Origin: Auanema rhodensis
Lineage: Eukaryota; Animalia; Nematoda
Length of the DNA: 64,000 nucleotides
Assembly (NCBI GenBank): GCA_964057225.1
Contig: OZ059899.1
Location: 11,222,001-11,286,000 of the forward strand
Direction of reading: 5' to 3'
Shown here: positions 19,038 through 60,286 of the stretch, piece by piece
Numbering within the stretch: the stretch's first letter is position 1
Layout of the letters: each line of letters begins with the position of its first letter
The notes under the pieces: model-generated
Databases searched by the model: none
Told to the model about the DNA's origin: nothing
The model's input: the letters and a program-made list of their open reading frames with translations, nothing else
Made by a program: the position numbers and the translations under genes

Positions 19038-19550
19038 ATACACCAACCACACAAAAATCACCTACGCCCGCACTTTCTTCAACCACACCCGCAGTAAGCT
19101 CATCCCCACCTCTACGAAACTCACCTTCATCCATTTATCATTCTACATCTGGGCATTCTCTATCTCCGTCTCTTCCATCGCAAACTAATCAAGCAAATAC
19201 TTTTGTTGCAGAAAACAAGAGAATTAACCCAAGAATGGACCCAATGGACGAAGGCGCACCACTTACGCAAACCTCGGGAAGGGCACCTGTTCCAACACCT
19301 ACAATCATCCCTCAACCAGCAGCGATTCCGTCCGCCATGCGCGATATAAAAGCTCCACGCTACGATGGAAAAACACCATTCAACCGCTATCTACTATACC
19401 TAGATGAACACTTCAACGCTACAAGAACAACTATGCCCGAACGTCTTCAAAGCATACAATTATTGCTAGAAGATGATCGAGCTTGGATGGGACCATGTCA
19501 AGAAGCGACTCTCAGAAATGATCACACCGAAAAAATAGAGAGAACGAGCA

Positions 19551-20783: not shown

Positions 20784-20797
20784 CTGAACGAGGACAC

Positions 20798-22636
20798 ATG
20801 ACCAGCCTACAAGACAATACAGTACTCTCAGATATATTCATAAACGACAACGGATGCACCAGTGACAAAGGACAATGCCTAACCAACAACGCTCTCATCA
20901 TATGGACCCCACCATCAGAAAAACATAGTTGCTCGTACACTTCATTAGGCTCTCACGAAGTTTTTATATCAGAAGACACCATATTGATTCCCGGAATTCA
21001 AAGTGCTTTTATTCTAAACAATAAAACACCGGAAAAAGAAGCCTCCTCATGCTTACAAAAAGAGATATTTACTACAAATAGCGGAACTCTAATCTCCTTC
21101 AACTCAACCTCAAGCTTAGGACGATCAAGAAGACACGCAATCACGGAATACCCTAAAGGATTCTTGACAGTTCATCAATACCCCTCGCTAAGATATTCAG
21201 CCAGCAAAACGGGAACTATTCTACTATATACAACCTATATTCAACGGAAAAGACTTGACATACATTACAATCTCAATAACATAACTAATATGTTACCTAA
21301 GTATATCGCAATCTTCAAATACCTAGGTATAAATTTTGATGTTATCAAAAATCGTCTTATATGGCACAAATATGAAGACGTCAACATAGCCATTCTATAC
21401 GCCCTAGGAGAAGCAGAAATAAGAGAAGCAACAAAAATCGCGATCGATAATCTATCGTATAAGGAACTTACGCATAAACTTAGCAAACGGATCACAATTA
21501 AGGATTTTAAGAAGATAATACCAACCAAAACAGGAGACTACTATGAAATCGCGAAAGAAATTGCTTACTCACTTGCGGAAATACCTACTACGTTAGCTAC
21601 AGGAGAAACAACACCATCTTTAGAAGAATACTTATATCAACTCATGCCACCAAGAAAACCAAGACTCACCAAGACACGAAACGATTTAGAACTGTACGAA
21701 CAACTAGCACAAGCAAAAATTATCCTGAACGCAATAAATAATCCGAAGAAGCTACATTCAAAAGAAGAATACGAAGCAGAAATGAAGAAATGGATCAAAT
21801 ATGAAAAAGATCTAAACTTACCACCATTACAACTGCCAAACTACACAGTTATCTTCGATGGCGACGATATATTCTACGGCTTCCGGAAAAGAAACCCTAC
21901 AAATTATAGCATTACACAAGAGGATAGTGGAAAATTTTATAATCATTATCTACCCCTTATCAGTACTCCCGGAACACGACCTTTTGCAACCACAATTAGA
22001 AGCACTTCGACCCCCCTACAAACTACTACTACAACCACTACCACGACCCCTAAGCCTACAACCATAAGGAACGTCATCACTTCGACAATCACACCCAAAA
22101 CACATATATCCACAACAACTAGACCCAAACCAACAATACCCACGTCTTCATCAACTACTACTACTACCACTACTACTACTACTACTTCTACTACTGCTAG
22201 ACCCAGATCAACAACAACCACAACACCTACAACAACCACAACTATATTCACCACTCATCGACCAACACAATCATTCTCCACCCCCCAATCTACATTCAAT
22301 ATTACTACAAACCCAATCACAATCACCTCAAGCCAGGAATACAATAGGAAAGAATCACTCACCAAGTCACTGCCTCCAAGAACCACAAAAAGATCTATCA
22401 CTACCACTCGCAGCACACCCGAAGAAATATCATCACATATTGGTAAGAAAGCCCACGTAGACTACCTTAAAGCTAAGAACGATATCGTCCAAAAATGGAA
22501 TGAACATCTTCATCAACAAGAAACGCAATCTCATCTACAATATGCCACTACCAATCTGGAAGATGATATCATACGTACGTTCGCAACAAACAGAAACAAC
22601 ATCTGCCACGTACAAAATAAACAACTACTTACCTAG
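20798..22636 (+). CDS. env: Fragment: Env ectodomain (gB-like) with furin site and Thr-rich mucin-like region
   Basis: Cys pattern shared with family B, RSRR at 21122, ICHVQN motif. Confidence 0.8.
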   Translation: MTSLQDNTVLSDIFINDNGCTSDKGQCLTNNALIIWTPPSEKHSCSYTSLGSHEVFISEDTILIPGIQSAFILNNKTPEKEASSCLQKEIFTTNSGTLISFNSTSSLGRSRRHAITEYPKGFLTVHQYPSLRYSASKTGTILLYTTYIQRKRLDIHYNLNNITNMLPKYIAIFKYLGINFDVIKNRLIWHKYEDVNIAILYALGEAEIREATKIAIDNLSYKELTHKLSKRITIKDFKKIIPTKTGDYYEIAKEIAYSLAEIPTTLATGETTPSLEEYLYQLMPPRKPRLTKTRNDLELYEQLAQAKIILNAINNPKKLHSKEEYEAEMKKWIKYEKDLNLPPLQLPNYTVIFDGDDIFYGFRKRNPTNYSITQEDSGKFYNHYLPLISTPGTRPFATTIRSTSTPLQTTTTTTTTTPKPTTIRNVITSTITPKTHISTTTRPKPTIPTSSSTTTTTTTTTTTSTTARPRSTTTTTPTTTTTIFTTHRPTQSFSTPQSTFNITTNPITITSSQEYNRKESLTKSLPPRTTKRSITTTRSTPEEISSHIGKKAHVDYLKAKNDIVQKWNEHLHQQETQSHLQYATTNLEDDIIRTFATNRNNICHVQNKQLLT

Positions 22637-22669
22637 TGGGCTATTCTTCAAATAAATCCTACTATAGGG

Positions 22670-25600
22670 ATGCGTACAATGCTACGACGACAGGATATAT
22701 CTGCAAGATTCATAAATGATAAACTAATTTATGTAATGCCATGCACACCAATTCAAATTACAAAAACATACCGCGATCACAAAGTCAACAGCACGTGTTT
22801 TCTGGAAACCCCAGTCGAAACGGAACATCACGGCCAACTGTTCATCCTACCAGGTACAAGAGACCTCACACCGATGGCACATCCCATACCATGCGGACTC
22901 ACAATCAAGGATCCCTGGAAAGAAAACGATCAATGGACTAATAATAACCAATCAATAAATGTAACATCACCAGCATACATCGACGAGTTAGGATCAATCA
23001 ACCTAGAACATATCAAGTTTAATGGAAGCAACATTTTCAACAACCTAACAGAATCAACGTTTCCTATGGCACTAGCAATATCATATGAATCCAGCTTAGC
23101 AACGCTACAGGCTACTTTACCAGGAAGAATAAAACCTGTAATCAAACAAAGATTAATTCCTAACATGAACCCTGTTACCCTAACAGCAGGAGCAGCCAGC
23201 AGCTTACTACTCAGCTACGAAAATACAAAAGAAGCTATAACTTGGAAAATGTTTGACTTTCTGTCACCAATATGGGAAAAGATTCAAACCTGGACACTAC
23301 GCGTACTTGCTATCATTGGATCAATCATCATAACAATTGGCATAATCACACTCGCCACCTGGATAATAAAAATATACGCATGTAGTTCAAGGATACCCAT
23401 CAACAATGTCAAATGGGAAGCAGAATACTTACAACCACTATCAACTGAGAACACAAGAACAGAAACATCTCATCCTTCTCCGTCCGCTCCATACGTCGAC
23501 AACCATCACAACAGCTGTCAACTCACATTGTATGATCCTTCAGCACAAATTCCTGAACACATTTATGAAGCTTATTTCCCTACAAGAATGAAGAAAGAAA
23601 ACATAAACTACATAGGAGGATCACAATTACCGTTTGTCCCGATTTCAATCCACAATCACATCTTTAAGGCACTATGGGACACGGGAGCATCAGCATCATA
23701 CATGCGAGAATCCACCTTCAAACAACTGCCCGCTGCAACGATGGTACTAAAACAAACAACAGCGATAGTCGCGAATAAATCTAAATTCTCATTTATGGGA
23801 TACACAAGGATCCTCATAACAATAGGAACAACAGAAACAGAACACAAATTTTATGTAGCAGAAGATAACTACTGTCCAGCACCAGTGTTACTTGGAATAG
23901 ACTTCATGGAAGCATTACATCAACAAGGAATTTACACCTCACTTCGACCGCTGGATAAAACAATTGTTATCGGCACAACACATGTTCCACTAGCACGAGA
24001 AACATCTCCGTGGGAACACCAGACCACAAAAGCATATGTGGTTAGCTTAGAAAACAAAACGCTGAGACCAGGAGAAACAAGAACGCTCACGCTAGAAGTA
24101 CACGATCCAGAAAGCTATGAACAGGCGTTTCTAGATTGTAAGAAACCAGGCAACAAACTCTCTTTCACGCCTACTATATTTACGCCAACTGGATACGGAG
24201 TACAAATTTACGCGACGAACATATGCAAACAGCCACTCGAAATTCAAATGAATCAAGAAATAGGGATAGCAGAAGCGATACCAAAGGACAACCAAGAAAA
24301 ATACGAAGGACAATACATACCTCCGGAAGCTCGATGGGAAGAACAACTGCCATATTTCCCAGACAATTTCATCAATGAACTTGACCTTTCAGAAGCCTGC
24401 TTCTCACAAAACGAACAACAGCAACTGAAAGAAATAATTTTACTACATAAACAAGCGTTTCTCAACGAAGATAGAAATATCGGACTCTTCCTAGGACCAA
24501 TTGAACACTCCATTCCAATCATGCCAGGAAAAACACCATCATTCAAAATTACTTATCGTATACCACTCTCCCAACAAGAAGAAGTGGAGAAACAAATAGA
24601 AGAAATGCTACAACAAAGAATCATTGAACCATCAAACTCAATGACAACTAGTCCAGTAATTTTGGTGAAGAAGAAAGACAAAACTTACAGATTTGTAACG
24701 GACTTTCGAGCTTTGAATGCAATCACTCAGAAACAAGTATATGTCATATCAAACATACAGGACATCCTAGATTTGGCCGCTGGAGCAAGGATCTTCAGCC
24801 ACTTTGATTTAGTATCTGGATTTTTCCAAATACCTCTTAAGAAGGAAGATCGTCATCGTCATCTTACAGCTTTCACAACAACAAGTGGAACTTACCAATA
24901 TTGTCGAATGCCGATGGGATTATGTGGATCACCCCATACTTTTCAAAACGCAGTACGATACCTGCAATCAATGGTTAAATGCAAGCTATTCGTATATCTA
25001 GATGATTTACTACTAATTTCTGAATCTACGACAGCACATTTAAAAGATATCGAAGAAGTTTTGGAAACAGTAACTCAAATAGGATTCAAAATAAAACTGA
25101 AGAAATGCGCATTCGCAAGAAAGGAAGTAAAATTTCTAGGATACATAGTTGGACAAGAAGGAATTAAACCCGACCCACATAAAATCAAGGCAATACAAGA
25201 TTATCCCCAACCAAAATCAACAACAGGAGTAAGAGCTTTCATGGGAGTAGTAAACTACTTCAGAAGGTTCATAAAAAACGCTGCAGGAATAGCAACACCA
25301 CTCTACAACCTCACTCGGAAAGACACTCCGTTCAAATGGACAGAAGAAGAAGAAATTGCTTTTAATACTTTGAAGAAAACATTGACTCAAGCACCTGTGT
25401 TACAAGCACCAATCCCGAAACGACCATATGTTATTGAAAGTGATGGAAGTATGATAGCAGTTGGCGCTGTACTACTTCAAGCGAAAGACGATCAAGTACC
25501 ATTACACCCAATAGCTTCTGCTAGTCGGAAACTCAACAAAGCTGAAAGGAATTATCCACCAATAGAAGTAGAAGCATTAGCTCTTACATTCGCCGTTAAA

Positions 25601-26269
25601 CAATTTCGCACCTACATACTAGGAACAGCAACCAAAATTATCACGGATCATAGACCACTTACTAGTTTAATGACTAGAAAAGATTTAATAGGTCGTTTAG
25701 CAAAATTTCAAATTGTTTTACAAGAATACGATATTGAAATTATCTACAGACCAGTAAAATTAAATAGTGTATGTGACGCATTATCACGATATTTTGAAGA
25801 TGAAATCAACGAAGCAAAACCACTAGCAAAGAAGAAAAACGAAAGAAAAACGACGGAAGATACTATTCATAAGATAAACACCTTCACGATAGCAGATATT
25901 CGATCAGTTCAGAATCAATCAAATTGGATAAAAGAAACTATGGATAAAATAAAGAACAATACAGCTGGACGACAACTGACGGACAGATATATTGTGTACA
26001 ACGATGTACTATACTCAAAACCAAAAAGAAGCCTACAAGTACCACGAACAATTTTACCACGAGAAGAGCACATAATTAATCCAATTATGAAGAAATTTCA
26101 TGAAGATCCGACACTCGGAGCTCATCTAGGAATAAACAAAACAATGGACTCAATATCAAGACGATTTACATGGACTGGAATGCAAGAAGACATTACAAAC
26201 TACATCAACAGATGTCTTGCTTGTGCAAAAAGAAAGAACAATCCTCACGAAGCAACGGTGAACCAATGA
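22670..26269 (+). CDS. pol: Fragment: Env C-terminus/TM fused in frame to protease, RT, RNase H and integrase N-terminus
   Basis: TM helix, LWDTGA, YLDD, ESDGS, H-H-C-C. Confidence 0.9.
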   Translation: MRTMLRRQDISARFINDKLIYVMPCTPIQITKTYRDHKVNSTCFLETPVETEHHGQLFILPGTRDLTPMAHPIPCGLTIKDPWKENDQWTNNNQSINVTSPAYIDELGSINLEHIKFNGSNIFNNLTESTFPMALAISYESSLATLQATLPGRIKPVIKQRLIPNMNPVTLTAGAASSLLLSYENTKEAITWKMFDFLSPIWEKIQTWTLRVLAIIGSIIITIGIITLATWIIKIYACSSRIPINNVKWEAEYLQPLSTENTRTETSHPSPSAPYVDNHHNSCQLTLYDPSAQIPEHIYEAYFPTRMKKENINYIGGSQLPFVPISIHNHIFKALWDTGASASYMRESTFKQLPAATMVLKQTTAIVANKSKFSFMGYTRILITIGTTETEHKFYVAEDNYCPAPVLLGIDFMEALHQQGIYTSLRPLDKTIVIGTTHVPLARETSPWEHQTTKAYVVSLENKTLRPGETRTLTLEVHDPESYEQAFLDCKKPGNKLSFTPTIFTPTGYGVQIYATNICKQPLEIQMNQEIGIAEAIPKDNQEKYEGQYIPPEARWEEQLPYFPDNFINELDLSEACFSQNEQQQLKEIILLHKQAFLNEDRNIGLFLGPIEHSIPIMPGKTPSFKITYRIPLSQQEEVEKQIEEMLQQRIIEPSNSMTTSPVILVKKKDKTYRFVTDFRALNAITQKQVYVISNIQDILDLAAGARIFSHFDLVSGFFQIPLKKEDRHRHLTAFTTTSGTYQYCRMPMGLCGSPHTFQNAVRYLQSMVKCKLFVYLDDLLLISESTTAHLKDIEEVLETVTQIGFKIKLKKCAFARKEVKFLGYIVGQEGIKPDPHKIKAIQDYPQPKSTTGVRAFMGVVNYFRRFIKNAAGIATPLYNLTRKDTPFKWTEEEEIAFNTLKKTLTQAPVLQAPIPKRPYVIESDGSMIAVGAVLLQAKDDQVPLHPIASASRKLNKAERNYPPIEVEALALTFAVKQFRTYILGTATKIITDHRPLTSLMTRKDLIGRLAKFQIVLQEYDIEIIYRPVKLNSVCDALSRYFEDEINEAKPLAKKKNERKTTEDTIHKINTFTIADIRSVQNQSNWIKETMDKIKNNTAGRQLTDRYIVYNDVLYSKPKRSLQVPRTILPREEHIINPIMKKFHEDPTLGAHLGINKTMDSISRRFTWTGMQEDITNYINRCLACAKRKNNPHEATVNQ

Positions 26270-27813
26270 AAAATTTTCCAACATCAACAAAACCATGGCA
26301 AAGAGTACACATGGATATACTCGGACCATTACCTAGGACAGAACAAGAAAACAGATATGTTCTTTCAATTCAAGATTCTTTTTCAAAATGGATTATCGCA
26401 ATTCCGCTAATCAGACAAACATCAGGAGAAATTATATCAGCTATCGAAAAATATCTCTTCTATGTTTTTGGACCACCTGTTACTATCATCACAGACAATG
26501 GATCTAATTTTATTTCAAACGATTTCACTACTATGTGCAGTAATTTTGGAACTACACACCACACTACTATGCCGTATTACAAAAACGCTAACGGACAAGT
26601 GGAAAGATTGCATCGGACGATCGAAGAAGCATTAACACCCTACGTTAATGACGAACAAAACGATTGGGATAAAATACTTCCGAAGATTATTTTTACACTC
26701 AACAGATTACCAAACGCCACCACTAAAACATCACCATACGAATGTTTGTTTGGACAAGTAGCATGTCTACCCATTGACAAAAACTTGGAAACACCGGAAG
26801 AACAAAATATCACGGATCAGCTCAAAAACTTAAGAGATATTCAAGAAAAAGTCAAGGAAAAGATTGCCACCAACGAAGAAAGAATGAAGCAGAAATACGA
26901 TCAAGCACATAGGACAAAAGAAAGAATATTAGATATAGGAGATCGAGTATTTGTACAAAGAGCGAACCCAAGCAACAAATTACAAATACGAAGAGATGGA
27001 CCTTACCGGATAGTGACAATTGAAGGAAACAACATCAGCATAACGGACCAAGATGGAAATATTATAAAAGCTCACAAAAATAACATACGTTATTTTCCAC
27101 CAGACGATAATCTTATATCAACAAGAAATAATGAAGAAGAGGAAGAAGAGGACCAAGACATAGCAAACGAAGAAGAAGAAGAAGAAGAAGAAACAAGTTG
27201 GAATAATCTGGATGAATGGGAACAAACCAATAATACGGAAAATAACAACAACTGTTACCCAACAGGCAGTCCAGATACTCTCGCGCAACTGTTACCTATC
27301 ACAGGGAATAACAGAGGAGTAAACGAAGAAGAAATTGAACATAATTCAGAAACACCTGACGACCTTGCTACAGCAAGAAGAATAACAAATTCTAATATAC
27401 AATTAGAAAATGAATCAACAACAATCGACAGAATTCAAGAGGACCTCAGACAGCTGACACCTTTCTCTCAAGAAGAAGGTCCTAATCAAAACGATATAGA
27501 AGATAATAACGCAAAAACATACGAAAAGCTACGAGATCAATTCAAGAATGAAAACAGAAAGGAGCTATTTGAGGACAGAAACAAAAACTCACCAGCAATC
27601 AAAAATTGGAACACTACACTTGCCGCAGCACTAGGAATAGGAAATGAAAACTCACGCCCGTATCATGTTAAACTAAAACCCAAAAGAAAAACACAAGACG
27701 AAGAAATCAGAAGTAATGGAGAATTGGAACTACATGGAAAAGCGGATCAAAGCAAAAAGCAGCAGAATAAATCTCCAACGCAAAACAAAGGAGAACAAGT
27801 ACGAAACTTTTAA
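26170..27813 (+). CDS. Fragment: integrase core, GPY/F motif and long acidic tail
   Basis: VHMDILGP, ITDNGSNF, NGQVER, DGPY. Confidence 0.9.
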   Translation: MDWNARRHYKLHQQMSCLCKKKEQSSRSNGEPMKNFPTSTKPWQRVHMDILGPLPRTEQENRYVLSIQDSFSKWIIAIPLIRQTSGEIISAIEKYLFYVFGPPVTIITDNGSNFISNDFTTMCSNFGTTHHTTMPYYKNANGQVERLHRTIEEALTPYVNDEQNDWDKILPKIIFTLNRLPNATTKTSPYECLFGQVACLPIDKNLETPEEQNITDQLKNLRDIQEKVKEKIATNEERMKQKYDQAHRTKERILDIGDRVFVQRANPSNKLQIRRDGPYRIVTIEGNNISITDQDGNIIKAHKNNIRYFPPDDNLISTRNNEEEEEEDQDIANEEEEEEEETSWNNLDEWEQTNNTENNNNCYPTGSPDTLAQLLPITGNNRGVNEEEIEHNSETPDDLATARRITNSNIQLENESTTIDRIQEDLRQLTPFSQEEGPNQNDIEDNNAKTYEKLRDQFKNENRKELFEDRNKNSPAIKNWNTTLAAALGIGNENSRPYHVKLKPKRKTQDEEIRSNGELELHGKADQSKKQQNKSPTQNKGEQVRNF

Positions 27814-28016
27814 TTAACTAACAAAAATCGTAGAATTGTAAAAATAATTTTTCTTTCTTTCGTATAGTACATTAAACATAAGACATAGATCAAAAACCAC
27901 CGAAATTCTAATTTCTATCCTTTAATTTTAACAAATTGTAACAATCACTGAAAAACAAACTATATAAAGAGAAAATTTTGATAGAGAAAAATTCAATAAC
28001 ACTTTTCTTACTCAAA

Positions 28017-28661
28017 ATGACCTCCTCTCTCGCCAACGTCACACTCTCTACATTCCCCGCAACTCCAACACCACTGGTCCCTCTAGCGACCACTATTGAA
28101 CAAGAATGGATAGAGGTACAAAACCTTCGTGAAGGTCTTCTATCTATCAACTGCATGAAGCCCAACTTAGGACCAATAATAAGCCTACAAACGAGCAAAT
28201 TGGAAAAGAAGACACAGCACATCCTATTTATGATGGAACTATTGGAGGAGAAAACCAAAAACTATAAGGAAAACGATCTGAAGGAGCTTCGCCAGCATCA
28301 AAAGAAATGGACAGAAGGATGTTCTCTCAGCCAGAAAGAGAACAGAATCCGACACATAATGCTGGGACAACCCGCCAGAACGCAGACCACAGCTGACATC
28401 TACAAAGCAATGCCGACGTGGACAACACAGATGACACAACAAGCTGTAAGAAATAGCGGAACCGAAGAAGAAGCATCGTGGATAGAGATAGGGCAAGACC
28501 TATCAGTAGTAATCGAAAAACTACTTACAAAAAGGACTACCAACACGTCCGCATCAAAAAGTAAGGCAAAAGCAGTTAGCCAAACCATCAGAACAATGGA
28601 GCTGCTTGGACTAGCATCAATGACGGAAATGATCCAGGAAATTGACCAACTGGAGAATTAA
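28017..28661 (+). CDS. Extra ORF 3' of pol in family A (214 aa from ATG; unknown function, predicted helical)
   Basis: Uninterrupted ORF with AAAA-ATG context, flanked by AT-rich noncoding DNA. Confidence 0.7.
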   Translation: MTSSLANVTLSTFPATPTPLVPLATTIEQEWIEVQNLREGLLSINCMKPNLGPIISLQTSKLEKKTQHILFMMELLEEKTKNYKENDLKELRQHQKKWTEGCSLSQKENRIRHIMLGQPARTQTTADIYKAMPTWTTQMTQQAVRNSGTEEEASWIEIGQDLSVVIEKLLTKRTTNTSASKSKAKAVSQTIRTMELLGLASMTEMIQEIDQLEN

Positions 28662-28856
28662 AGAAGAGAGGAAAGGTTTAAATCATTTATAAAATTCTAT
28701 CTCTTAAAAAAATTTTTCTCTTTATCAATAGTTTGTTGAAAAAAAAAATTTGCTTTATCTCATGCCATTTTAATTTTTTTAATTTTTTAATTTTTCTCTC
28801 TTAATTATTATTTGCATATAACAGCTGAGGTCAGCTGACTTGTATCCGTTGGAGCA

Positions 28857-29273
28857 TGTTACATGCATATCTCAAAGGAAAGCAGCTGACCATGGCAGCT
28901 GCTATTATTAAACTAATGCAGATAGTTTTTAAGCAATTCTGAGAATATTCTAGATGCACTTTTTATAAGCTTTGTAACAATTTGTGTAAACTGAGTAGGA
29001 GTTGTATGGATATATAAACCTGAGTCCTCAAGACTCAGGCATCTCATTATCTCATTATCTTACTTTCTCTTTATCTTCTTTATATTCTCTTTCTTAACTC
29101 TAGCTTTAATCTTTGTATAATTATATTATAATGCGAACAATAAACCTTTATATATTTCATCTTTTGTTTCTTATTTCACCTTACATTACACACATATATT
29201 TAAAATCATACTCATCGTCTCATAGTCTGTTTGGATATCTCAACTTGGAACCATTGGGAATCCAAATGGAACG
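28857..29273 (+). repeat. 3' LTR, family A
   Basis: Direct repeat of 18603-19019. Confidence 0.95.
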
Positions 29274-48223: not shown

Positions 48224-48589
48224 CGTTCCATTCGGAGACTCTATATATGTAACTGCAGGGTTAGAGCCAGACCGACTAGAGGAATGAGGAATGGCACCGC
48301 CTTCCCTCATGCCCCTATTCGGGAGTTCGCCCCTTTGCAAGCCCATGGACGGTTTGCATCTAACTTAGTTAATCTTATATATTAGTCTTTGTCTTGTAAA
48401 TGTAGTTTACTTTATCCTTGTGTTATTGTATTGTAATGATATTGTATTGTGTATAATAAATCTATATATTTCCTTATCTTATGTAATCCTTATGCTCTGT
48501 TTCCATACCGCTACACTTATGGAATACTATACGCGTAGTTGAGCAGACTACAATGGTCTGTTCAATATACGTAGGAGCATAATGGAACG
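48224..48589 (+). repeat. 5' LTR, family B copy 2
   Basis: 9-bp terminal inverted repeat CGTTCCATT/AATGGAACG. Confidence 0.96.
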
Positions 48590-48610
48590 TGGAGGTTCCG
48601 CCTCGAACTC
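48590..48610 (+). promoter_or_regulatory. Primer binding site (tRNA-Gln)
   Basis: TGGAGGTTCCGCC (A>G versus copy 1) immediately after the LTR. Confidence 0.83.
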
Positions 48611-49571
48611 ATTTTTGTCGCAAAAACTCGCATAAAAAGTCCATATTTTGATATCTAAATTAAAACTTCCTCCACGGTTAGCAACATAATGAGGGCGCCA
48701 ACTTGTATAAGGTGCAGGTACAAGGGATCTCTCTTTTAGAGAGCTAGGACTATATAATTTTGAAATTTCACCCGCTGTCCCCTATCATAAAACCGTCTGA
48801 GTGTCCACCCTTATAATACCGTATCCTGCACCGCTTCTTTTGCATTTTTTTTTTTGAGGACGTTTGGATCGAAATAGGGGACAATTTCACCAAACGAAAT
48901 TTTGATTACATTATTATTTGGCAACGAGGAGTTAGAATGAAATTATGAAAGCGCACAAAGTTTAATATTTTATTGTGGTCAGGACTAGAAATTTGAAAGT
49001 TAAATTCAGGCGTAAAAGAGCATGCTAACTAAATATTTTTGCGGGAGCCGTTATTCGGTTTTTATTTTTTTTTTTTGATTGTGAGAATAGACCACACTAG
49101 TCCGAAAAATCCTGGCACAAATTTTATTGCCTGTCAGGTCATTTTGGCGAAAGCACATGGGCTACGGATGTTTTCTTCTCCGTAGAATGTGTCACCTTCC
49201 TCAGCTCATTTTTGTTGCTAACATCATAAGATATTCCCACACACCTACCGTAGTATTCATATTGTAATATTCTATAAATTAGTACAATGGTTTAAAGAAA
49301 AAATTGCGTTTTATAAACGAGCTTTGGTCTCAGTCCATTAGTAAAATGAGCAATCTTTTTAAATATTCTCGGAATCTCATTAGCATGCCAAAATCATTCC
49401 GAAAAAGAATCGCCCACGGCTTTTAATAATCAACGTGCACATGAGCCATTTTCCCAAGGCGCACGCACTCCTTCTTTATTAATAAGCTCGACCAAAGTTT
49501 GTGTTATGAAAAAAAAAAGAGAGAGAGAACAAATGAGTGAAATTAAGTATTTATTATATATGAAACAATTG

Positions 49572-50105
49572 TTAAAAGCCCCATTTAAAATGCAACTGTC
49601 TCACAAATTCTATAGGCTGTGAGATGGGCTCATCGCTAGGCTCTAAATACTGCGAATACACTGAATCCGCAGAGGTCCTTAGCAATAAGCCCATAGGAGA
49701 CTGTTCATAAAATAAATAAATTTTAAACAAAATTTTAGACATATAATCATAAAAATCATGAGACTTATGCTCATACCAATTCCAAGGGGATGCGACTAGA
49801 TTTGGGTTTTCATACCAATGCGCGCACAAGTCGGTGAGGCACCATCGCCGGATAGCTGCAACCTCATCCGCTATTTCCTGCATTAGGGAGAAGTTTACTA
49901 ATCCCCTTCCCAGATAATGCATCTTTAAATCCTCAATAAACTAAAAATTCTTATTAACATAACATGTTTCTTTGTTTTAACCAACCATCTTAATTATGTC
50001 TGGGTGCGGCCTATAAGCTAACACTTCGTCTTGATCATACAAGACGAGGTCAGCGTACAGCTTCCTCAAGACAAAAGTCATTCCCGATAGACCTTCATAA
50101 GCCAT
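49572..50105 (-). CDS. Spliced antisense accessory gene (exon 1 50105-49986, intron 49985-49941, exon 2 49940-49572; 162 aa)
   Basis: Same exon-intron structure as 2553-3086; 5 amino-acid differences; frame intact. Confidence 0.75.
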
Positions 50106-50516
50106 TCTTTGATTTATTTTTTTTTCAGCTCTACAAATATAAAGATTCTTATGCATAAAAAGGGGACATAAAACGACTGAAAATCTCTCTCATACTTTCA
50201 AGAATTCAATTAGAGTAAAGTATTAAGATTGAGGCTAGAAAGAGCGAAGACCAACAAAATTTATAATTGATGAACATCTGTGAAAAAGAATAAAGAAAAG
50301 AGAATACGGTAGATAGGCGGAGCCAGATCTCAGGCCAAGATTTTAAAACTCTTTCTCATCTAATAACGATTCTCGGCGAAAGACGCCACGTCTCAATCTT
50401 CAAACTTTTCTTACTTTTCCCTATAACCGACCTGAATTTCTTGTCACTCATTCAACGTCAACATCCCCCATATAACGAAACACTCGCGGTTTTTCCAAAC
50501 CAAGAGTGATTCCAAA

Positions 50517-53500
50517 GTGGCACGAAGATACTCTTCGGCCGTCCCTGCTCTATACCCTTCTGAGTCCAGTGACGACATCGCAGTCGCCAGTCGAACCAGA
50601 AGCCGCACTCGACTCCTCAGTGTTCAGATTGAAGAGCCTGAACAAGAGGTAAAACCCAAAGTCGAGAAAACCTTCATTCCTCGAGAAGGCACGTATTCAC
50701 CTCCGGACAACACCGAGGAGGACCCTGATTTCTATATTCAGGACTACAATATTCAAACTTCAGCTTCAACTCCAAAGGTACACTCTTTTAAAAGTAATAA
50801 AAAGATTCAAAAAATTCAAAAACCAAAACAAATAACCTCTAATACTTCACCAGCCACTCCCCACCTAAACTTATCAACTTTATCAGTTAATACTGATAAC
50901 GATCTTGCATCTTCTTTTGAACTAACTCTAACACCGCAGGCATTTTCCACTCCGATAGAAAACTCACAACTTAATAAAACCTCATCTCTCACTATTCGCA
51001 AATCACCCTTATCAGTTATCACTGATAAGCTTGATTCGAAAAAGCTTGATTCTAAAAAAATTAATAAAAGAAAAACTAATACACCGCGTAGGCGCTCAAC
51101 CTCTAATAATCCCGTAGAACCAAATCAGGAAATTACCGAAGTTTTGCCCTTATCACTAACTACTGATAAGTTCAAAAGTAAGAAATCTTTAACAGCTCGC
51201 TTAATAAAAGTTTTGAATTTGTCTCCAGGGGAGGTAACAACAGAACAAGTTGATAACTCTCTTCACGTATCCTCCAACCCAACCCTTAATAAGTCAGATA
51301 GCGCTATACCCAGCTCAAGCGTATCAATACATTCGACGCCTCAGGCAACGAGTCGAATTATCAAACTCCCAGGGAAGCGGTTCTCCTCAGCCGCCCCTAC
51401 CATTAGTTATCCAACATCTGGTAACTCGAAAAAGGGAGGTAAGAATTTAACGGCGAGAAGCTCAGGCAGTAAAGGGATTACGTCATCTCGCACATACCCT
51501 GAGGATATACCAACCATGACGGAGACACCACGTCTTCCGGGAGCTGGTAAATCTACCATTGCGCACGCATTAAGCTCACCTTATTGCCCCATATACGACG
51601 GAAGTCGTAACTTTAGAGATTTCGTGGCAAAGTTTAATACCTTTTCTAACGCCTTAGGCTTAGTGATGCCCGAAAGACTAACTATTTTACCATTACTATT
51701 GAAAAATGATAGAGCAGAGGAAGCTTATTTAGAGCTACCTGACAAGGTCAGAACAGCTGGACCTTGGGTTACCCTAATAGAAGAGTTAACATCCAAGCTG
51801 TGTCCCGAATACAATCAAGACCCTGCCCTTATCACACTTCAAAACAGCACTCAAGGCGATTTATCAATTGATGGTTTTGCACAAACGTTAAGAAACCTCA
51901 GCTTAAATGCTTTCTCTAATAGTGATACTCATAAAGATCACATTCTGAGGTCCACATTTTTGAGAGGCTTGAAAAATACGATACGCCCAGGGGTAATTCG
52001 AGCAAAACCCAAAACTTTTGCTGAGGCTGTTGATAGTGCTCGCTGGGAGGAATCAATTACAAACCAAGTAGCAGACCCTCAGGCGCTATTGGTTAACGCA
52101 ATTGAAAGAACTTTCCCCCCGCGCAGAAACAATGGTGGGAGAGGTATGGCAAGAGGTTATCAATCTTTTAATAATAAAAATTATCAAAATTATAATAATT
52201 ATAACAATTATCATCCAAACTTTCAAAACAATCAAAATTATCATAAATTTTCAAAAAATCAAAAAGGCTGGAATTTCCAAAACCCATTTGCTAGGAACCG
52301 CAATTTTGGTGACCGCGGTCGAAATTATCAGAATCAAAATCAAAATGGGTATCAAAGAAGCCATAATGCATCACAAAATCAAGAAATGAGCAATAATAGA
52401 CAGAGAAATAACAGTACCTTTAGGGGAAATAACAACAATAGAGGCAGAGGTAGAGGCTCAAGAGTCAATAATTTGACTCTGATATCTCCTTTGACTTTAG
52501 CCGTAGCTTTATCAGTAATCTTATCACTGGTTACAACAGCTGAAGCATACCAGCTATGTACTAAAGCTACTGGAGGAGCGCTTCTCCGTCCCCCATCTCT
52601 CCGAAAATGCTTATTACCACCAATAAAGCATATCTTACGAACAAAAGTTCATCTTTATACAAGGAATCAAACGGCACATGAATGGGATGCATGGAGATGC
52701 TCCAAAGAAATTCATAAAATGTGTATCAGAGACCTTTTGTTCCTTAGAGATACCAATACAACGATAGCGAGAATTGAAAAGATACCAGCTGCAGAATGCA
52801 GACTGGCAGTGAGAGATAGAAGATGGAATTGGAGTGAATTAAAGAAGATTGACAGCATAACATATGCAACTGACGAGCCTTCCTTCTCGCCAGGCCGATC
52901 TTTTAATAATGAACTATGTAAAGAGAAAGCTAGATTGGTTATCGAAAGAGGGGCTATGACACGGATGCCAGATGAAACTATAATCTCCAATTTAATACTA
53001 AATACTGAAGGATGCTTAGCGCATCATGGAGAATGTGCATCAGATACTTCAATCATCATATGGGAGAAACAGCCTTATGAATATCGATGCAACTATATCG
53101 ACATGAGTGAATATGATGCGATAATTGGAGACGGCATTATTCTGTTACCAACCACTCAATCAGCCCTTGTAATCGATCAAAAAGAGATACCGAAGCAAAT
53201 ATCTTCTTGTTTTAAACAGCCAATCTTCCACACCACGACTGGCAATTACATTCTTTTACCACAGTACCCAAATGACACCAATATCCCTGTTTTAATAGAG
53301 AGAGAATATAAGAAACTTCCGGCGAAAAGAGATAAAAGAGCAATTGCGGAATGCACGGTTGAATTAAACAAGGAGTGGATACAAAAACAGGAAGATTTTG
53401 AAACTTTAATATTAAATATTTGTCCTTATCCTTTCTTACGACCGGTGATGAGTAATCCTGGTATTTATCAGATAATACCGCTTATAAAGGCCAGACGAGC

Positions 53501-56500
53501 TGTCAACCCTTCATATTCAATTATTGATTGGGTTTCAGCACATCCTGAGAAGTTTTATTTCTTCTTAAGAAGTCCCGTATCTGATAAATCCATACAACGT
53601 TTCCTTCAAACATACGAAATACACGACCCTGAGGAAGCAATACTTTATTTTCTTGCGCAAAAGGAATTGGCAGCAACCACTCGCGGCGCTATACGGTATT
53701 TAACCTCACAACAATTATTAGAACAGATAGGTGACAGATTAACAGCACACGAATTTGACGAAAAACTACTAGAAAAGGATGGATCCTACTGTGAAAGAGC
53801 CGAAAGCATAGCGATGGAGCTAGCTTATACACCGGTAATATTTGAAAACAATCTGTCGGTACCATCGAGGCAAGAGGTTTTAAAATCCTTTGTGAACATG
53901 CCGCCTATCCGACCAACTTTAACAACTGACAATGCTGATGAGCGTATAGTACTTAGGAATACTCTTTACTTATACCATAACTTGATGACATTGCGAGTAA
54001 TAAGGCCAAATAAAACAGCAGCAGCCGTAGATGATGAAAAGTTCCGACAATTAACAATCAATGTGCCAGATACCAACAAACTATATCGAGATAAAGATTC
54101 TAACTACGGTATATCGATAGGCCCCCACCCTCGCATTCAAACTCCAAGCGCGGATACACGCCAGCTACTTATAAAAACATTTTTACCACTGTTAGAGGAT
54201 ATTGAAACACCGCCTTATCTGACTAGAAGACTGTCATTAACGACAACAACGGACAAACCCGCTTCACTAGTTCAGGAGACAACTATAAGCTATACGACTC
54301 GGATTCCGACGACAACCATAGTTGACACGACAACAGCCGTGATAACTACGACTCTCTCGCCAACAACATTAGCAACAGTCACTGACACGGCGTCACGAAC
54401 CTTAAGGAAACAAAGAACATCATCTCCACCCGTAGAAACCAGAGAAATTCAGGCTCAGGCAACGTATACAGCGTCAAAAGTGAACAACGAAATACAATTC
54501 AACCTCAACGTATCTCGCAGAATAGCTCAAGATCATCTACAATATACAACAACACTCATACAAGAAGAGCTACAGAAACGTTTTATGGAATCTTATGAAT
54601 CCATATGTGAGATTCAAAATAGATACCTCGAGCTATGGCGTTCTATTTTACACATAGAACCCACAATAGCAATGAGGACTATTTTAGGAAGAGAGGATAT
54701 TGCAGCCCGTTTCGTAGGCAGCGATATAGTTCATGTTCATATATGCTTACCTCTTCAACCTAAAGCTGTTTATCATAATCATAAGATCAATGATACATGC
54801 TATTTGGAAACACCAGTAATAACAGAAGATGAGAGATTATATTTTGCTGCTCCAGGATCAAGAGACTTATTAACACATGGAAAAGAGATAGATTGCGAAC
54901 ATGTACCAACAGATGTGTACTATCAAAATGGAGAATGGATAAATATAAATGGATCGGTTGAAGTAAAACCAATATCACTCTTTGATAAAGCGCAATACCA
55001 CCAATTAACACCTTTAAAGTTCACATGCGCTAACTTATACACCAATTTATCATTGAGAGTTTACTCAATGTCAACAGCTATTGCATATGGAGCAAGTTTA
55101 GCATCCATACAACAGAACCATGTTTTACATACTATTCACAACGATCCAAAGATTACGTCAGCCTTTAATCTTTTGAAAAAGGGCAGTGACTATATCTCTA
55201 AAGCAGCTGAGTTCACAACTTCCGCCTGGACTAGCGTAAAACAATTTCTAATAGGTTCAATTGAGAGAACACTCATCTTTATAGGATCAATAGTCACGAT
55301 TGCCGCAGTATTAATAATTCTTTTCGTTGTTGCTAAATTTTGGTTCTTCAGAGCCACTCCACTAACCGTAATGCATGTCCATGAAATAGATAATGAGCCC
55401 CCAGGCTATGAAGAAACATTGGAACTTGTAAGCCGCCCAGACCAACAGATGCCAGATAACATCATGAAGCAATACTATCCTGCGTTAGTAACATTTATTC
55501 CAATCGCAATACCATTTGTTGCTTCTATTGCATCAGCGGAAACAAAGTTACCATTAATATATATATCAGTTGAAGATAAACTGATTTTAGCTTTATGGGA
55601 TTCAGGCTCATCAGTGTCATATGTTAGGCTCTCCACCCTCAAATATCTGAACATGGCCGAAAATGTCAAGAAGAGACATTTAGTAGCGATGGCAGCCAAC
55701 AAGTCCACTTTCACATTTTATGGAAAGATAAATCTTGTAATTGAAATTGCCGGCTACGAGATCGAACACACATTTTTGGTCTCAAACGATCATGACTGTC
55801 CTGCTCCCGCTTTAATTGGACTAGATTTCATGAAAGCGCTTGACAGCGAAAACATCGACGTCAGCCTTAAACCATCCAAGAAGAGGTTGGAGATTGGAAA
55901 CAATGCCATCCCATTAATAGGAAACGAATCTATTAAGCATACGGAGATAACTGTGAATATCATTAATTTAAGAACAAAAACATTAAAGCCTGATGAAGAG
56001 GCACCTATCCCAATAAAGACAGATAAACCACTAGAATCTAACGAAGTGGTTGTCTTAGGGGATAGTGGAAGCGCATTAAAATCATTATATCCAACTGCGT
56101 TTCGTGATACCAGTGGAGTATATGTTATGTTCCGTAACGATACCGATGAAACAATAGCTATGGAAGCTAATTCAGTCATCGGGCAGGCAATAATTGGAGA
56201 AATTCCGGCTTGTGAACCCTTTAAGCATAAGCCAATTCTACCATATGTTCCGCCAGAAGCCGATTGGGAGAGTAAACTACCATATTTTCCAAGACACTTC
56301 ATAAAAGATCTTGATCTAGAGAATGCTGATCTCACGAAAGAAGAAAAACATGAGCTTACAAAAATAATTGAAAGCCATCGTGAGGCATTTCTTAACGAGG
56401 ACAGGAAAATAGGATTATTTAAAGGTCCTATAGAGCATACCATACCATTGAGAACAGATATGGATATGCCAAAGCCGAGAATAACACGTATTCCCTTAGG

Positions 56501-59222
56501 AAAACAGGAAGAAATTGAAAAGCAAGTCAAAGAAATGCTTGAGCAAGGCATAATAGAGCCTTCTACATCTCTATTTAATAGCCCTGTAGTACTAGTTAAG
56601 AAGAAAGATGACACGTATAGGTTTGTGACAGATTTTCGAGCTTTAAATAATGTCACACGCAAGCAAACTTATGTCATTCCAAGCATTTCTGACATAGTTG
56701 ATTTGGCAGCAGGCGCCCAATTTTTCTCAAACTTCGATTTAGTGTCAGGATTTTTTCAAATATCCTTGAGAAAATCAGATCGACCACTAACAGCATTTAC
56801 GACCACATCCGGCACATACCAGTACAAACGGATGCCGATGGGCCTTTGTGGAGCCCCTCATACCTTTCAAACAGCAGTAAGGTATTTGCAAAGTAAATGT
56901 TCTTGTAAACTATTTGTTTACTTGGACGATCTATTAGTTATATCTGATACAAGAGAACAACATCTCAAAGATATCGATGATTTACTGCAAGCAGTAGAAG
57001 AATTGGGAATGAAGATAAAGCTTAAGAAATGCGCTTTTGCTCAACCAGAAGTGAAATTTCTAGGACTTATTGTAGGACGTCAAGGTATAAAACCTGACCC
57101 TCAAAAAGTCGCCGCCATACAAGATTATCCGGCACCAAAGAATGCAACAGGTGTACGAGCATTCTTGGGAATGGTTGGATTCTTTCGCAAATTCATGAAA
57201 GATTTTGCACGTATCGCAAGCCCTTTATACGATCTGACAAAGGCAGATACTGAATTCAAATGGGAAAACAAACAAAAAGAAGCTTTAGACCTCCTTAAAA
57301 GAAGTTTAATACAGGCACCCGTTTTAAGCCCACCTAAATCGGACCGCTTGTTTATAGTTGAAAGCGACGGTAGTAACATCGCCATAGGTGCTGTATTATT
57401 ACAACCGGAAGATCCAAAACAACCTCTGAAAAATCTACACCCTATCGCATTTGCAAGCAGAAAACTAGTTAAAGCCGAACGTAACTACGCACCAATCGAG
57501 ATAGAAGCATTAGGCCTTGTATATGCATTAAATCAATTCCGTACATACATTCTTGGAACTCATACTATATGTATTACGGACCATCGACCCCTTACCAGCT
57601 TAATGACACGCAGAGACTTATTTGGTCGTCTTGCGAAGTTCCAGCTGGTCATCCAAGAATATGATATTGAAATAAAATATCGCGCAGGCCAATTAAATAA
57701 AGTATGCGATGCTCTATCTCGATATATAGGTAAAGAAGCTAACGATGCTAAGCCGGAAACAAAGAAGAAGAAAATGGAAGAAATTCACATTAACGCCATA
57801 AATACACCAACAATAAAGGAAATTCAACTGAACACCCCTTGGATTAAACGAACGATAGCGGAGATTGAATATAGAGCACAAAAGAACATGACAGCTAATG
57901 ACAGATATTGTGTCATAAACGACTTGCTATATACAAAACCGACAGACAAAAAGCCACAACCCGCTATCGTAATACCACAAGAACACCCCATAATTGAGGA
58001 AATAATCAAAGTTTTTCATGAGGATCCTACAATTGCAGCACATCAAGGAATTATTAAAACAAAAGAAGCAATTCTAAGAAGATTCTATTGGACAAATATG
58101 CAGAACGACATTACTATATTCATCAAGAACTGCATTAAATGTGCTCAAAGAAAAAAAGATCCACATTCCATGACGGTACAACCAATAGGTCATTTTGAGA
58201 TACCAAGCAAGCCATTTGAACGAGTCCACATGGACGTAATGGGACCATTTCCCCCTTCAAAAAGAAACTGTACCTACGTCATTACCATGCAAGACGCATT
58301 TACAAAATGGTCAACAACAATTGCTGTACCACAAATAACAACGGAAATCACAATTGACCGATTTCTAAGACATTTCGTTTACATTTTTGGACCACCCCAT
58401 CGCTTGATCACCGATAGAGGTTCGAACTTTGTATCTAAAAAGTTCGAAGAAATGTGTACTAAACTTGGAATCAAACATGAACCAACACTACCACACCAAA
58501 AGAACTCAAATGGACAAGTGGAAAGACTTCACAGAACCCTCGAAGAAGGATTAACCCACTACTTAAAAGAGGACCTTAGTGACTGGGATACTATATTACC
58601 AAAAATCACTTTTGCTATTAACAATATTCAGCACGCGACTACAGGGATTGCGCCATACATTGCATTATTCGGTAAAGAATGCAGAATGTCAATGGACGCT
58701 GAATTACCAGAAACGATCACCAAAATTCAAGAAATTTCTGAAGAATTACTCCAAAGAAGACCAGATATGGACAAGAGAGACGAAATAATAAAGAACCGCA
58801 TAGCTAAAAATCAAGAAAATGCGAAAAAGAAGAAAGATAGAACGCAAAGAGCACACCATAGAGACATTCAACCGGGCGACATGGTGATGACGACTATAAA
58901 ATCACACCAAATCGGCCAAAAGCTTCGGAAAAGCTATGATGGACCATACGAAGTCATCAACGTAGAAGGATCAAAAGTTCAAATCAGAAATTCATCAGGA
59001 AAACTACAAGATATCCACAAAGATAACTTGAAAATCTTCTCTCCTGCTTCACAAAACATCTCTTACAACACTCGCGCAAGGTTTCGAGAAAGTCAAGCAG
59101 AAGAAGATAGCGACATCGAAATAATAGAAGTGATCAACAGGAACAACAAGGATAGCATAGATACAGAGCCAGAAGATGAAAATGAAGACGAAATATGGCT
59201 TCCGAGGAATGAAGAAGAATAA
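50517..59222 (+). CDS. gag-env-pol: Gag-Env-Pol polyprotein (capsid; signal peptide; gB-like class III Env; TM; aspartic protease; RT; RNase H; integrase)
   Basis: PIYDG/FLRGL capsid motifs; signal peptide ending at 52547; KRDKR at 53325; gB-like motif at 54606-54747; TM ~55270-55350; DSG at 55599; YLDD at 56919; ESDGS; HHCC; DDE; GPY. The first ATG is at 51516, so the true start is uncertain. Confidence 0.95.
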   Translation: MARRYSSAVPALYPSESSDDIAVASRTRSRTRLLSVQIEEPEQEVKPKVEKTFIPREGTYSPPDNTEEDPDFYIQDYNIQTSASTPKVHSFKSNKKIQKIQKPKQITSNTSPATPHLNLSTLSVNTDNDLASSFELTLTPQAFSTPIENSQLNKTSSLTIRKSPLSVITDKLDSKKLDSKKINKRKTNTPRRRSTSNNPVEPNQEITEVLPLSLTTDKFKSKKSLTARLIKVLNLSPGEVTTEQVDNSLHVSSNPTLNKSDSAIPSSSVSIHSTPQATSRIIKLPGKRFSSAAPTISYPTSGNSKKGGKNLTARSSGSKGITSSRTYPEDIPTMTETPRLPGAGKSTIAHALSSPYCPIYDGSRNFRDFVAKFNTFSNALGLVMPERLTILPLLLKNDRAEEAYLELPDKVRTAGPWVTLIEELTSKLCPEYNQDPALITLQNSTQGDLSIDGFAQTLRNLSLNAFSNSDTHKDHILRSTFLRGLKNTIRPGVIRAKPKTFAEAVDSARWEESITNQVADPQALLVNAIERTFPPRRNNGGRGMARGYQSFNNKNYQNYNNYNNYHPNFQNNQNYHKFSKNQKGWNFQNPFARNRNFGDRGRNYQNQNQNGYQRSHNASQNQEMSNNRQRNNSTFRGNNNNRGRGRGSRVNNLTLISPLTLAVALSVILSLVTTAEAYQLCTKATGGALLRPPSLRKCLLPPIKHILRTKVHLYTRNQTAHEWDAWRCSKEIHKMCIRDLLFLRDTNTTIARIEKIPAAECRLAVRDRRWNWSELKKIDSITYATDEPSFSPGRSFNNELCKEKARLVIERGAMTRMPDETIISNLILNTEGCLAHHGECASDTSIIIWEKQPYEYRCNYIDMSEYDAIIGDGIILLPTTQSALVIDQKEIPKQISSCFKQPIFHTTTGNYILLPQYPNDTNIPVLIEREYKKLPAKRDKRAIAECTVELNKEWIQKQEDFETLILNICPYPFLRPVMSNPGIYQIIPLIKARRAVNPSYSIIDWVSAHPEKFYFFLRSPVSDKSIQRFLQTYEIHDPEEAILYFLAQKELAATTRGAIRYLTSQQLLEQIGDRLTAHEFDEKLLEKDGSYCERAESIAMELAYTPVIFENNLSVPSRQEVLKSFVNMPPIRPTLTTDNADERIVLRNTLYLYHNLMTLRVIRPNKTAAAVDDEKFRQLTINVPDTNKLYRDKDSNYGISIGPHPRIQTPSADTRQLLIKTFLPLLEDIETPPYLTRRLSLTTTTDKPASLVQETTISYTTRIPTTTIVDTTTAVITTTLSPTTLATVTDTASRTLRKQRTSSPPVETREIQAQATYTASKVNNEIQFNLNVSRRIAQDHLQYTTTLIQEELQKRFMESYESICEIQNRYLELWRSILHIEPTIAMRTILGREDIAARFVGSDIVHVHICLPLQPKAVYHNHKINDTCYLETPVITEDERLYFAAPGSRDLLTHGKEIDCEHVPTDVYYQNGEWININGSVEVKPISLFDKAQYHQLTPLKFTCANLYTNLSLRVYSMSTAIAYGASLASIQQNHVLHTIHNDPKITSAFNLLKKGSDYISKAAEFTTSAWTSVKQFLIGSIERTLIFIGSIVTIAAVLIILFVVAKFWFFRATPLTVMHVHEIDNEPPGYEETLELVSRPDQQMPDNIMKQYYPALVTFIPIAIPFVASIASAETKLPLIYISVEDKLILALWDSGSSVSYVRLSTLKYLNMAENVKKRHLVAMAANKSTFTFYGKINLVIEIAGYEIEHTFLVSNDHDCPAPALIGLDFMKALDSENIDVSLKPSKKRLEIGNNAIPLIGNESIKHTEITVNIINLRTKTLKPDEEAPIPIKTDKPLESNEVVVLGDSGSALKSLYPTAFRDTSGVYVMFRNDTDETIAMEANSVIGQAIIGEIPACEPFKHKPILPYVPPEADWESKLPYFPRHFIKDLDLENADLTKEEKHELTKIIESHREAFLNEDRKIGLFKGPIEHTIPLRTDMDMPKPRITRIPLGKQEEIEKQVKEMLEQGIIEPSTSLFNSPVVLVKKKDDTYRFVTDFRALNNVTRKQTYVIPSISDIVDLAAGAQFFSNFDLVSGFFQISLRKSDRPLTAFTTTSGTYQYKRMPMGLCGAPHTFQTAVRYLQSKCSCKLFVYLDDLLVISDTREQHLKDIDDLLQAVEELGMKIKLKKCAFAQPEVKFLGLIVGRQGIKPDPQKVAAIQDYPAPKNATGVRAFLGMVGFFRKFMKDFARIASPLYDLTKADTEFKWENKQKEALDLLKRSLIQAPVLSPPKSDRLFIVESDGSNIAIGAVLLQPEDPKQPLKNLHPIAFASRKLVKAERNYAPIEIEALGLVYALNQFRTYILGTHTICITDHRPLTSLMTRRDLFGRLAKFQLVIQEYDIEIKYRAGQLNKVCDALSRYIGKEANDAKPETKKKKMEEIHINAINTPTIKEIQLNTPWIKRTIAEIEYRAQKNMTANDRYCVINDLLYTKPTDKKPQPAIVIPQEHPIIEEIIKVFHEDPTIAAHQGIIKTKEAILRRFYWTNMQNDITIFIKNCIKCAQRKKDPHSMTVQPIGHFEIPSKPFERVHMDVMGPFPPSKRNCTYVITMQDAFTKWSTTIAVPQITTEITIDRFLRHFVYIFGPPHRLITDRGSNFVSKKFEEMCTKLGIKHEPTLPHQKNSNGQVERLHRTLEEGLTHYLKEDLSDWDTILPKITFAINNIQHATTGIAPYIALFGKECRMSMDAELPETITKIQEISEELLQRRPDMDKRDEIIKNRIAKNQENAKKKKDRTQRAHHRDIQPGDMVMTTIKSHQIGQKLRKSYDGPYEVINVEGSKVQIRNSSGKLQDIHKDNLKIFSPASQNISYNTRARFRESQAEEDSDIEIIEVINRNNKDSIDTEPEDENEDEIWLPRNEEE

Positions 59223-59263
59223 CAACAAGATAATGCTACGTTATTTAAATTATTGTAACAAAA

Positions 59264-59739
59264 TAACGATGAATTAGAAAAAAAAAATTAATGCTAAATA
59301 ACATTCAAAATAAAAATAGCATTTAATAGAGATTGAGAAAGGAAAAATAAGGCAAATTCTAAACGAGGAGATGTTATGACTAATGGTTCCAAGTTACCGT
59401 AATCCTATGCGGACTAGAGGACATTTTGACAACCATCCGAGCTCCATGTGCCTCTCCAAATAAGATGAGATAAACACTGGTAGGCGTATAAATCACAATT
59501 TCATCTTAAGTGGTAGTCTCCATTAGTAATCAAGGATTCACTCTGGGAGACATATGGAGATACATTATTAAATCATAATCTCGGTTCAATTTAGAAATGA
59601 GTACTTCTTGAGACCATTAGTCAAAATAATAACATATTCCCATTCATTACTAGCCCCTTATTCTACAATCTCTATTAGGAAATGCTTGAATATTAAGATA
59701 ATTAATTTATGAAATTAATAATATTCTAATTCATCGTTA
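59264..59739 (+). other. Long rod-like RNA secondary structure in the 3' UTR
   Basis: At least nine nested complementary segments, including 16-, 12- and 11-bp perfect pairs. Confidence 0.8.
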
Positions 59740-59909
59740 CTTTATATTATATCGAACCCTTCTTATAAATTATTGTAATTTTGTTTTTATACTAATTAAA
59801 ACTCTATCATACTATAGTTATTGTGAAGCTAAAATAATTGAACTCTAAAACTCAGTTACATATAAGCCCAAATTTTTGTTTTAAATATCGCGAGGTCGCG
59901 ACAATCTTT

Positions 59910-59920
59910 GAAAAAGGGCA
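59910..59920 (+). promoter_or_regulatory. Polypurine tract
   Basis: GAAAAAGGGCA directly before the 3' LTR. Confidence 0.75.
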
Positions 59921-60286
59921 CGTTCCATTCGGAGACTCTATATATGTAACTGCAGGGTTAGAGCCAGACCGACTAGAGGAATGAGGAATGGCACCGCCTT
60001 CCCTCATGCCCCTATTCGGGAGTTCGCCCCTTTGCAAGCCCATGGACGGTTTGCATCTAACTTAGTTAATCTTATATATTAGTCTTTGTCTTGTAAATGT
60101 AGTTTACTTTATCCTTGTGTTATTGTATTGTAATGATATTGTATTGTGTATAATAAATCTATATATTTCCTTATCTTATGTAATCCTTATGCTCTGTTTC
60201 CATACCGCTACACTTATGGAATACTATACGCGTAGTTGAGCAGACTACAATGGTCTGTTCAATATACGTAGGAGCATAATGGAACG
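59921..60286 (+). repeat. 3' LTR, family B copy 2
   Basis: Direct repeat of 48224-48589. Confidence 0.96.

Follow-up and report, generated by a model that had tools for sequence, protein, structure and literature searches.

Element B and its polyprotein

The stretch of Auanema rhodensis DNA analyzed here (64,000 nucleotides of contig OZ059899.1; the window) consists of tandemly repeated tRNA-Ile(AAT) genes, 50 of them over 4519-63549 in units of about 667 bp that are about 99% identical. The array is broken up by three long terminal repeat (LTR) elements and a fragment resembling a Mutator-like element (MULE). Our subject is one of the three, element B (48224-60286, plus strand, LTR to LTR), which carries an env gene related to that of herpesvirus glycoprotein B (gB) in a one-frame Ty3/gypsy element. 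The likely product, by prediction, is a trimeric class III fusion spike that would bear at its tip a helical insert on a Thr-rich stalk, and this insert may serve to attach to host cells.

One unbroken plus-strand frame of 2928 codons (50436-59222; first ATG at 51516) encodes gag, env, protease (PR), reverse transcriptase (RT), RNase H (RH), and integrase (IN), in that order. Gag (51516-52463) has a capsid-like region with a weak Ty3_capsid match (E 0.024), followed by an N/R/G-rich basic region; in relatives, Retrotrans_gag or Ty3_capsid is found at the same place. At 52464-52547 come a VNNL motif, a putative site for the element's protease, and a signal-like hydrophobic segment ending in AEA, after which cleavage would occur. 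The N-terminal half of Env (52548-53339), gB domains I and II by profile, ends in a furin-type RDKR (53328-53339). An inserted domain of about 290 residues, predicted to be all helical (53340-54212), is followed by a Thr-rich, mucin-like stalk (54213-54422; Ser plus Thr up to 48% in 50-residue windows) with a weak second basic site, RKQR. The C-terminal half (54423-55214) comprises the gB domain III central helix, domain IV and, by position, domain V and the membrane-proximal region. Beyond the transmembrane (TM) helix (55269-55349; Kyte-Doolittle values up to 3.1), a cytosolic tail with PPGY at 55398-55409 (55350-55565) runs in frame into Pol (55566-58496), with protease (DSG), RT (YLDD), RNase H, and integrase.

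The 366-bp 5′ LTR (48224-48589) is identical to the 3′ LTR (59921-60286), which is preceded by a purine tract. The LTR ends, CGTTCCATT...AATGGAACG, form a 9-bp inverted repeat of the type CG...CG, not TG...CA, and a 4-bp target duplication, ATTC, lies at either flank. By comparison of 12-mers, the primer-binding site (48590-48601) is of the tRNA-Gln type, with one mismatch to the 12-mer given for two Caenorhabditis elements in PMC13524379. A second copy of element B (1-4434, minus strand) is 99.2% identical and ends at the window edge just inside env. The third insertion, family A (18603-29273, plus strand), has the same layout split into five frames by frame changes and one in-frame stop within env; its 417-bp LTRs are 99.3% identical (3 of 417 bases differ) despite the several frame breaks. 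Family A and the second B copy both have primer sites that are exact matches to the Caenorhabditis 12-mer.

Both B copies have 360 open, Ser/Thr/Lys/Pro-rich codons ahead of the first ATG (50436-51515), with no Pfam match, and an acceptor-like TTTCAG lies near 50123, upstream of the frame. The family A LTR (18603-19019) has ends of the type TG...CG, and AATGGAACG terminates the LTRs of both families, directly adjoining the primer site. Family A has an additional open reading frame between integrase and the 3′ LTR (27942-28661; 239 codons stop to stop); it has no Pfam match, and element B has no such frame.

A gB-like Env on a Ty3/gypsy Pol

An initial annotation of this DNA had compared Env to gB from a central-helix motif. 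The peptides are where it placed them: ICEIQNRYLELW...HICLPL lies at 54603-54755, inside the polyprotein frame, and the family A counterpart reads ...ICHVQNKQLLT, stop (22634-22636), WAILQINPTIG.... The CY/CF..P segment said to follow the motif is CYLETP in element B and CFLETP in family A. The profile comparison it proposed against class III proteins gave significant matches, bearing out the likeness. Env matches Pfam PF24664 (Monjiviricetes_fusion) at E 7.9e-15 (54.3 bits, cut-off 27), all 48 of its sequence matches in PDB at E≤1 are herpesvirus gB (best E 2e-4), and a 37-row profile of the Env family reaches gB at E 3.3e-17. The same profile weakly matches, over the domain I part, four PDB chains named "Glycoprotein" (E 0.003-0.006), which from their entry codes we take to be rhabdovirus G. 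The gB match is interrupted by about 370 extra residues, a point that the initial annotation does not make.

Env cysteines 4, 21, 687, 733, 751, and 783 are kept in 31/31, 33/33, 34/34, 32/33, 32/33, and 31/32 of those relatives that have a residue at the position (97-100%), and all six align to gB cysteines. Their pairing would follow that of gB, in which the C596-C633 disulfide is described in PMC13398477. The alignment of relatives also shows, in the N-terminal half, the conserved hydrophobic tips of two predicted fusion loops, one at Env 63-66 and the other at 117-119. The residue is hydrophobic in 94% of rows at position 64 and in 100% at position 119, where 82% are aromatic, and the pair would fit bipartite fusion loops.

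By domain order and RT similarity, Pol is Ty3/gypsy, as had been read from the letters. Between LTRs with a primer-binding site, purine tract, and target duplication, it has the PR-RT-RH-IN order of the Metaviridae and the Pfam families RT_RNaseH / RT_RNaseH_2; in an RT comparison by score, without a tree, it matches Ty3 at E 1e-78, caulimovirus-type RT at 2e-46, and retroviral RT at 7e-35. A Pfam scan found no Pao family (Peptidase_A17, DUF1758, DUF1759, DUF5641) in the window's Pol at E≤0.1, whereas 12 Pao hits, as positive controls, do show Pao domains; the element does not fall in BEL/Pao (Belpaoviridae). These results support a gB-like class III Env joined to a Ty3/gypsy Pol.

A HMMER scan returned 300 Env relatives at E≤0.001, of which 150 were listed and 20 looked up by name; the closest of those 20 are Auanema sp. 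and Caenorhabditis proteins, which point to a rhabditid nematode as the likely host. Among the 150 listed, at least 38 have PR or RT downstream of Env, and Pfam assigns at least 12 to Pao. Of the hits, a C. japonica protein (P0009) has the best local RT score. A tree of the Env C-terminal domain, made from 60 rows by a quick method and with 5 of its 57 branches starred, groups element B with three Auanema rows (Shimodaira-Hasegawa-like approximate likelihood ratio test [SH-aLRT], 97) and elsewhere does not resolve; Pao and gypsy rows intermingle (5 changes each), with the starred branches forcing 1 change only. The nearest Envs are those of rhabditid gypsy gag-env-pol elements, at 43-55% identity, which argues that Env was inherited within that lineage. 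The independent capture suggested by the initial annotation is thus unnecessary for element B. Whether Env was exchanged between Pao and gypsy elements in the distant past is not settled by the Env tree.

At least 77% of the sampled words occur in each of 11 sequencing runs from three studies, one of the runs possibly being the window's own source. In DNA run X4, one contig spans 51360-54080, joining gag, env, and most of the insert, so these junctions are not an assembly artefact. Of 72 differences, 37 were classed (from 40 shown, after one outside the frame and an adjacent pair were dropped), a subset biased to shared differences; synonymous and replacement changes stand at 10:6 in env and 14:6 in pol, with no stops, where about 25% synonymous would be expected.

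The inserted domain and proposed polyprotein processing

From the last cysteine of domain II to the domain III cysteine, element B has 466 residues, compared to a median of 98.5 in relatives (the 70 of 150 listed hits having both Env halves); the spacing exceeds 300 in 13 of these 70 and reaches 445 in 2. The insert consists of a conserved core of about 90 residues, a nested expansion of about 120, and a short C-terminal motif. Families A and B have homologous inserts (domain II and insert taken together match at BLAST E 1e-39; the insert is at about 21131-21991 in family A), as do five Auanema proteins. The core was recovered in nine further proteins (best reversed decoy E 0.35) and is common to Auanema, Caenorhabditis, and both window families. 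Because an 80-row local alignment misplaced two insert homologues, the insert was folded alone; with 14 rows, AlphaFold 2 (AF2) gave a predicted local distance difference test score (pLDDT) of 71 and a predicted template modeling score of 0.67, with the core at pLDDT 70-92.

The insert had no Pfam match, no PDB profile match (best E 1), and no Foldseek match at E≤0.001 in PDB or BFVD, and its homologue P0075 had no usable Atlas match; none of this shows that the modeled domain is a new fold. By eye the core had looked UBA-like, but the VIA list, a poor test of parts taken singly, gave this no backing. For one subdomain of the insert, a six-helix death-domain fold was considered as a candidate. 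A literature search, including a term search of PMC13524379 and its supplements, found no description of the insert, which is not proof that none exists. The insert would be a folded cap in a class III Env, apparently undescribed so far, and is predicted to sit at the spike tip. Other long, apparently different inserts occupy the same Env position in P0026, P0033, P0034, P0015, P0117, and P0037; two of these proteins are from Aphelenchus, and three protease-like repeats are present in P0026 as well.

Env lies between a signal-like segment and a single strong TM segment, so Gag and Pol would be cytosolic. We imagine, with considerable confidence, that the internal signal threads Env into the endoplasmic reticulum (ER) while Gag and Pol stay in the cytosol and that signal peptidase frees the Env N terminus. 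The motif [VI]Nx[IVLM] directly precedes the signal in 15 of 25 sequences, A and B included (1.2 expected), and occurs within 60 residues after the TM segment in 21 of 28 relatives (2.7 expected), compared to 3 of 28 lumenal control stretches (3.1 expected); in element B it is also found at the capsid end and the RH-IN junction. This distribution suggests a site for the element protease, which probably cuts at such sites before the signal, after the TM helix, and before PR. These cuts would detach Gag and Pol from what anchors them in the membrane. It also seems probable that RDKR undergoes a furin-type cut, with the halves staying linked through C4-C733 and C21-C687, as aligned to gB; the insert would then be the free N-terminal head of the membrane-anchored half.

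Of 30 Env tails, 7 carry PT/SAP or PPxY, where 0.8 would be expected (5 of 28 if A and B are set aside), and none of 11 Pao tails does; the motif in the family A tail is PSAP. It is conceivable, though we hold this less firmly than the cuts, that the tail motif recruits the endosomal sorting complex required for transport (ESCRT) for budding. The order would be ER insertion, signal-peptidase and furin-type cuts, budding with Gag and Pol still attached, and then protease maturation. In this proposal, a single translation would yield equal numbers of capsid, enzymes, and fusogen, all at the same membrane. More tentatively, one can envision that in rhabditid gag-env-pol elements the class III apex linker has become a modular head for receptor binding, carried on a mucin stalk and enlarged through nested insertions. 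The product would be a one-protein attachment and fusion machine in a single polyprotein, its Env tail giving the ESCRT late motif and towing Pol into the budding particle.

The insert may serve attachment, a plausible role of which we are far from certain. It could instead, though we think this rather doubtful, cover the apex as a folded shield or a brake on fusion, in the manner of an enlarged gB hypervariable linker or a glycan cap, with no part in receptor binding. A masking role has been proposed for the herpesvirus gB linker (PMC13398477), and relatives with long linkers show great variation in how long these are and in their sequence, many being Ser/Thr rich. Set against this, the core is kept across Auanema, Caenorhabditis, and both window families to a degree that a spacer would not require, only two sequons are present in the insert, and nematodes have no antibodies. 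If excised at both ends, the insert might be released as a secreted decoy or effector; this seems unlikely, and the weak basic site that follows the stalk is not shared generally by relatives, which favors an attached head over a released piece. That the insert has no role at all we find improbable.

Two further explanations concern Env as a whole. One is that element B captured gB recently and independently, the source being either a herpes-like virus or a member of BEL/Pao such as Tas. In its favor are 12 of the scanned hits, which are Pao polyproteins carrying an Env of this kind, and the mixing of Pao and gypsy rows in the tree. Such a capture is very hard to reconcile, however, with the well-supported grouping among rhabditid gypsy Envs, with starred branches that force so little exchange, and with a pairing of gB-type Env and gypsy that PMC13524379 finds to be widespread and argues to be ancient. 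Env might also be a nonfusogenic relic, retained solely through its in-frame position between gag and pol, where stops would cost pol; the broken family A and the Arg in loop 2 would suit this. We regard it as quite unlikely, given that the signal, cysteines, furin-type site, loop tips, and TM segment are kept across families only about 27-40% identical and that synonymous differences are in excess in env.

Several points do weigh against a gB-like spike processed as proposed. The match to PF00606 (Glycoprotein_B; E 9e-09, 35.6 bits) is under its cut-off of 43, and the N-terminal half alone matches gB weakly (7.2 bits). The Arg of loop 2 is at position 117, and in 76% of relatives that residue is aromatic. 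For the ectodomain, the AF2 model from a single sequence has a pLDDT of 32 and is not a confident model of the whole Env, so the class III fold rests here on profiles and on published models of relatives (PMC13524379). The element B tail has VHEI rather than the strict protease motif, and 23 of 30 tails are without a late motif; both motif sets were picked after seeing A and B, and the relatives are not independent. The synonymous count, too, uses a subset, 37 of the 72 differences.

Genomic setting and known systems compared

The tRNA array has local inversions near 11726-13600. At the 3′ end of a tRNA gene, an insertion (5853-8502) carries in minus-strand orientation a broken gene that resembles a MULE transposase (E 6e-05, short of the cut-off). 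Each of the three LTR insertions (4434, 18603/29273, and 48223/60287) has a tRNA gene no more than about 85 bp away, with distances of about 67 bp upstream of one gene and about 40 and 85 bp downstream of others; their positions within the tRNA unit differ, and three are too few to show targeting.

The single frame used to define nematode gag-env-pol elements (NERV) reportedly goes back to Sacco et al. in 2022; element B has gag-env-pro-pol in one frame and an Env of HSV/gB type (HSV, herpes simplex virus). According to PMC13524379, which cites that work, env-carrying gypsy elements of nematodes, 36 of them tabulated, have only HSV/gB-type Envs in the order GAG-ENV-POL. They share with element B the gypsy Pol, a size of about 12 kb, a tRNA-Gln-type primer site (8 of 36), and a gB-type Env between signal and TM segments. 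The combination of a gB-like env with a gypsy Pol is therefore already published, and its presence here adds little. The Envs in that source have five domains (I-V), whereas a folded II-III insert, stalk, protease motif, and late motif go unmentioned in the part of the text available, and none of its 36 nematode rows is an Auanema element.

Herpesvirus gB has in common with Env the domain III-IV profile match, the aligned cysteines, and a furin-type site in the II-III linker, but its linker is 15-55 residues long, compared to the roughly 370 extra residues here, and it is not part of a Gag-Pol polyprotein. It also works with gH/gL partners, none of which was seen in element B. Glycoproteins of the Monjiviricetes, chuvirus, and bornavirus type (PF24664, PF06208) include the best Pfam family for Env, and relatives also touch BDV_G; however, the PF24664 match covers only profile positions 314-448 of 653, and these glycoproteins are stand-alone genes of negative-strand RNA viruses. 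Tas of Ascaris, which the initial annotation rightly cited as a gB-like env on a BEL/Pao element (PMC9094657), and other Pao elements place the same fusogen class in a nematode LTR element. They differ in their Pao Pol, in an env at the C-terminal end, in tails without a late motif, and in a short linker (spacing of 61-111 residues in 12 Pao hits). C. elegans Cer1 is, like element B, a nematode Ty3/gypsy element, but its extra frame after pol encodes a Rev-like protein and not a fusogen, according to PMC10309623.

Within the nematode gag-env-pol kind, element B is a variant whose class III Env has an extra cap, predicted to be folded and apparently undescribed. Class III fusogens usually attach through partner proteins or their own core domains. 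If the insert is functional, having a folded head of its own at the prefusion tip would make for a new architecture and give a direct handle on the cells that nematode retroelements enter. The conserved protease-type and late-domain-type motifs, in turn, offer a testable account of how a gag-env-pol polyprotein may be sorted across a membrane.
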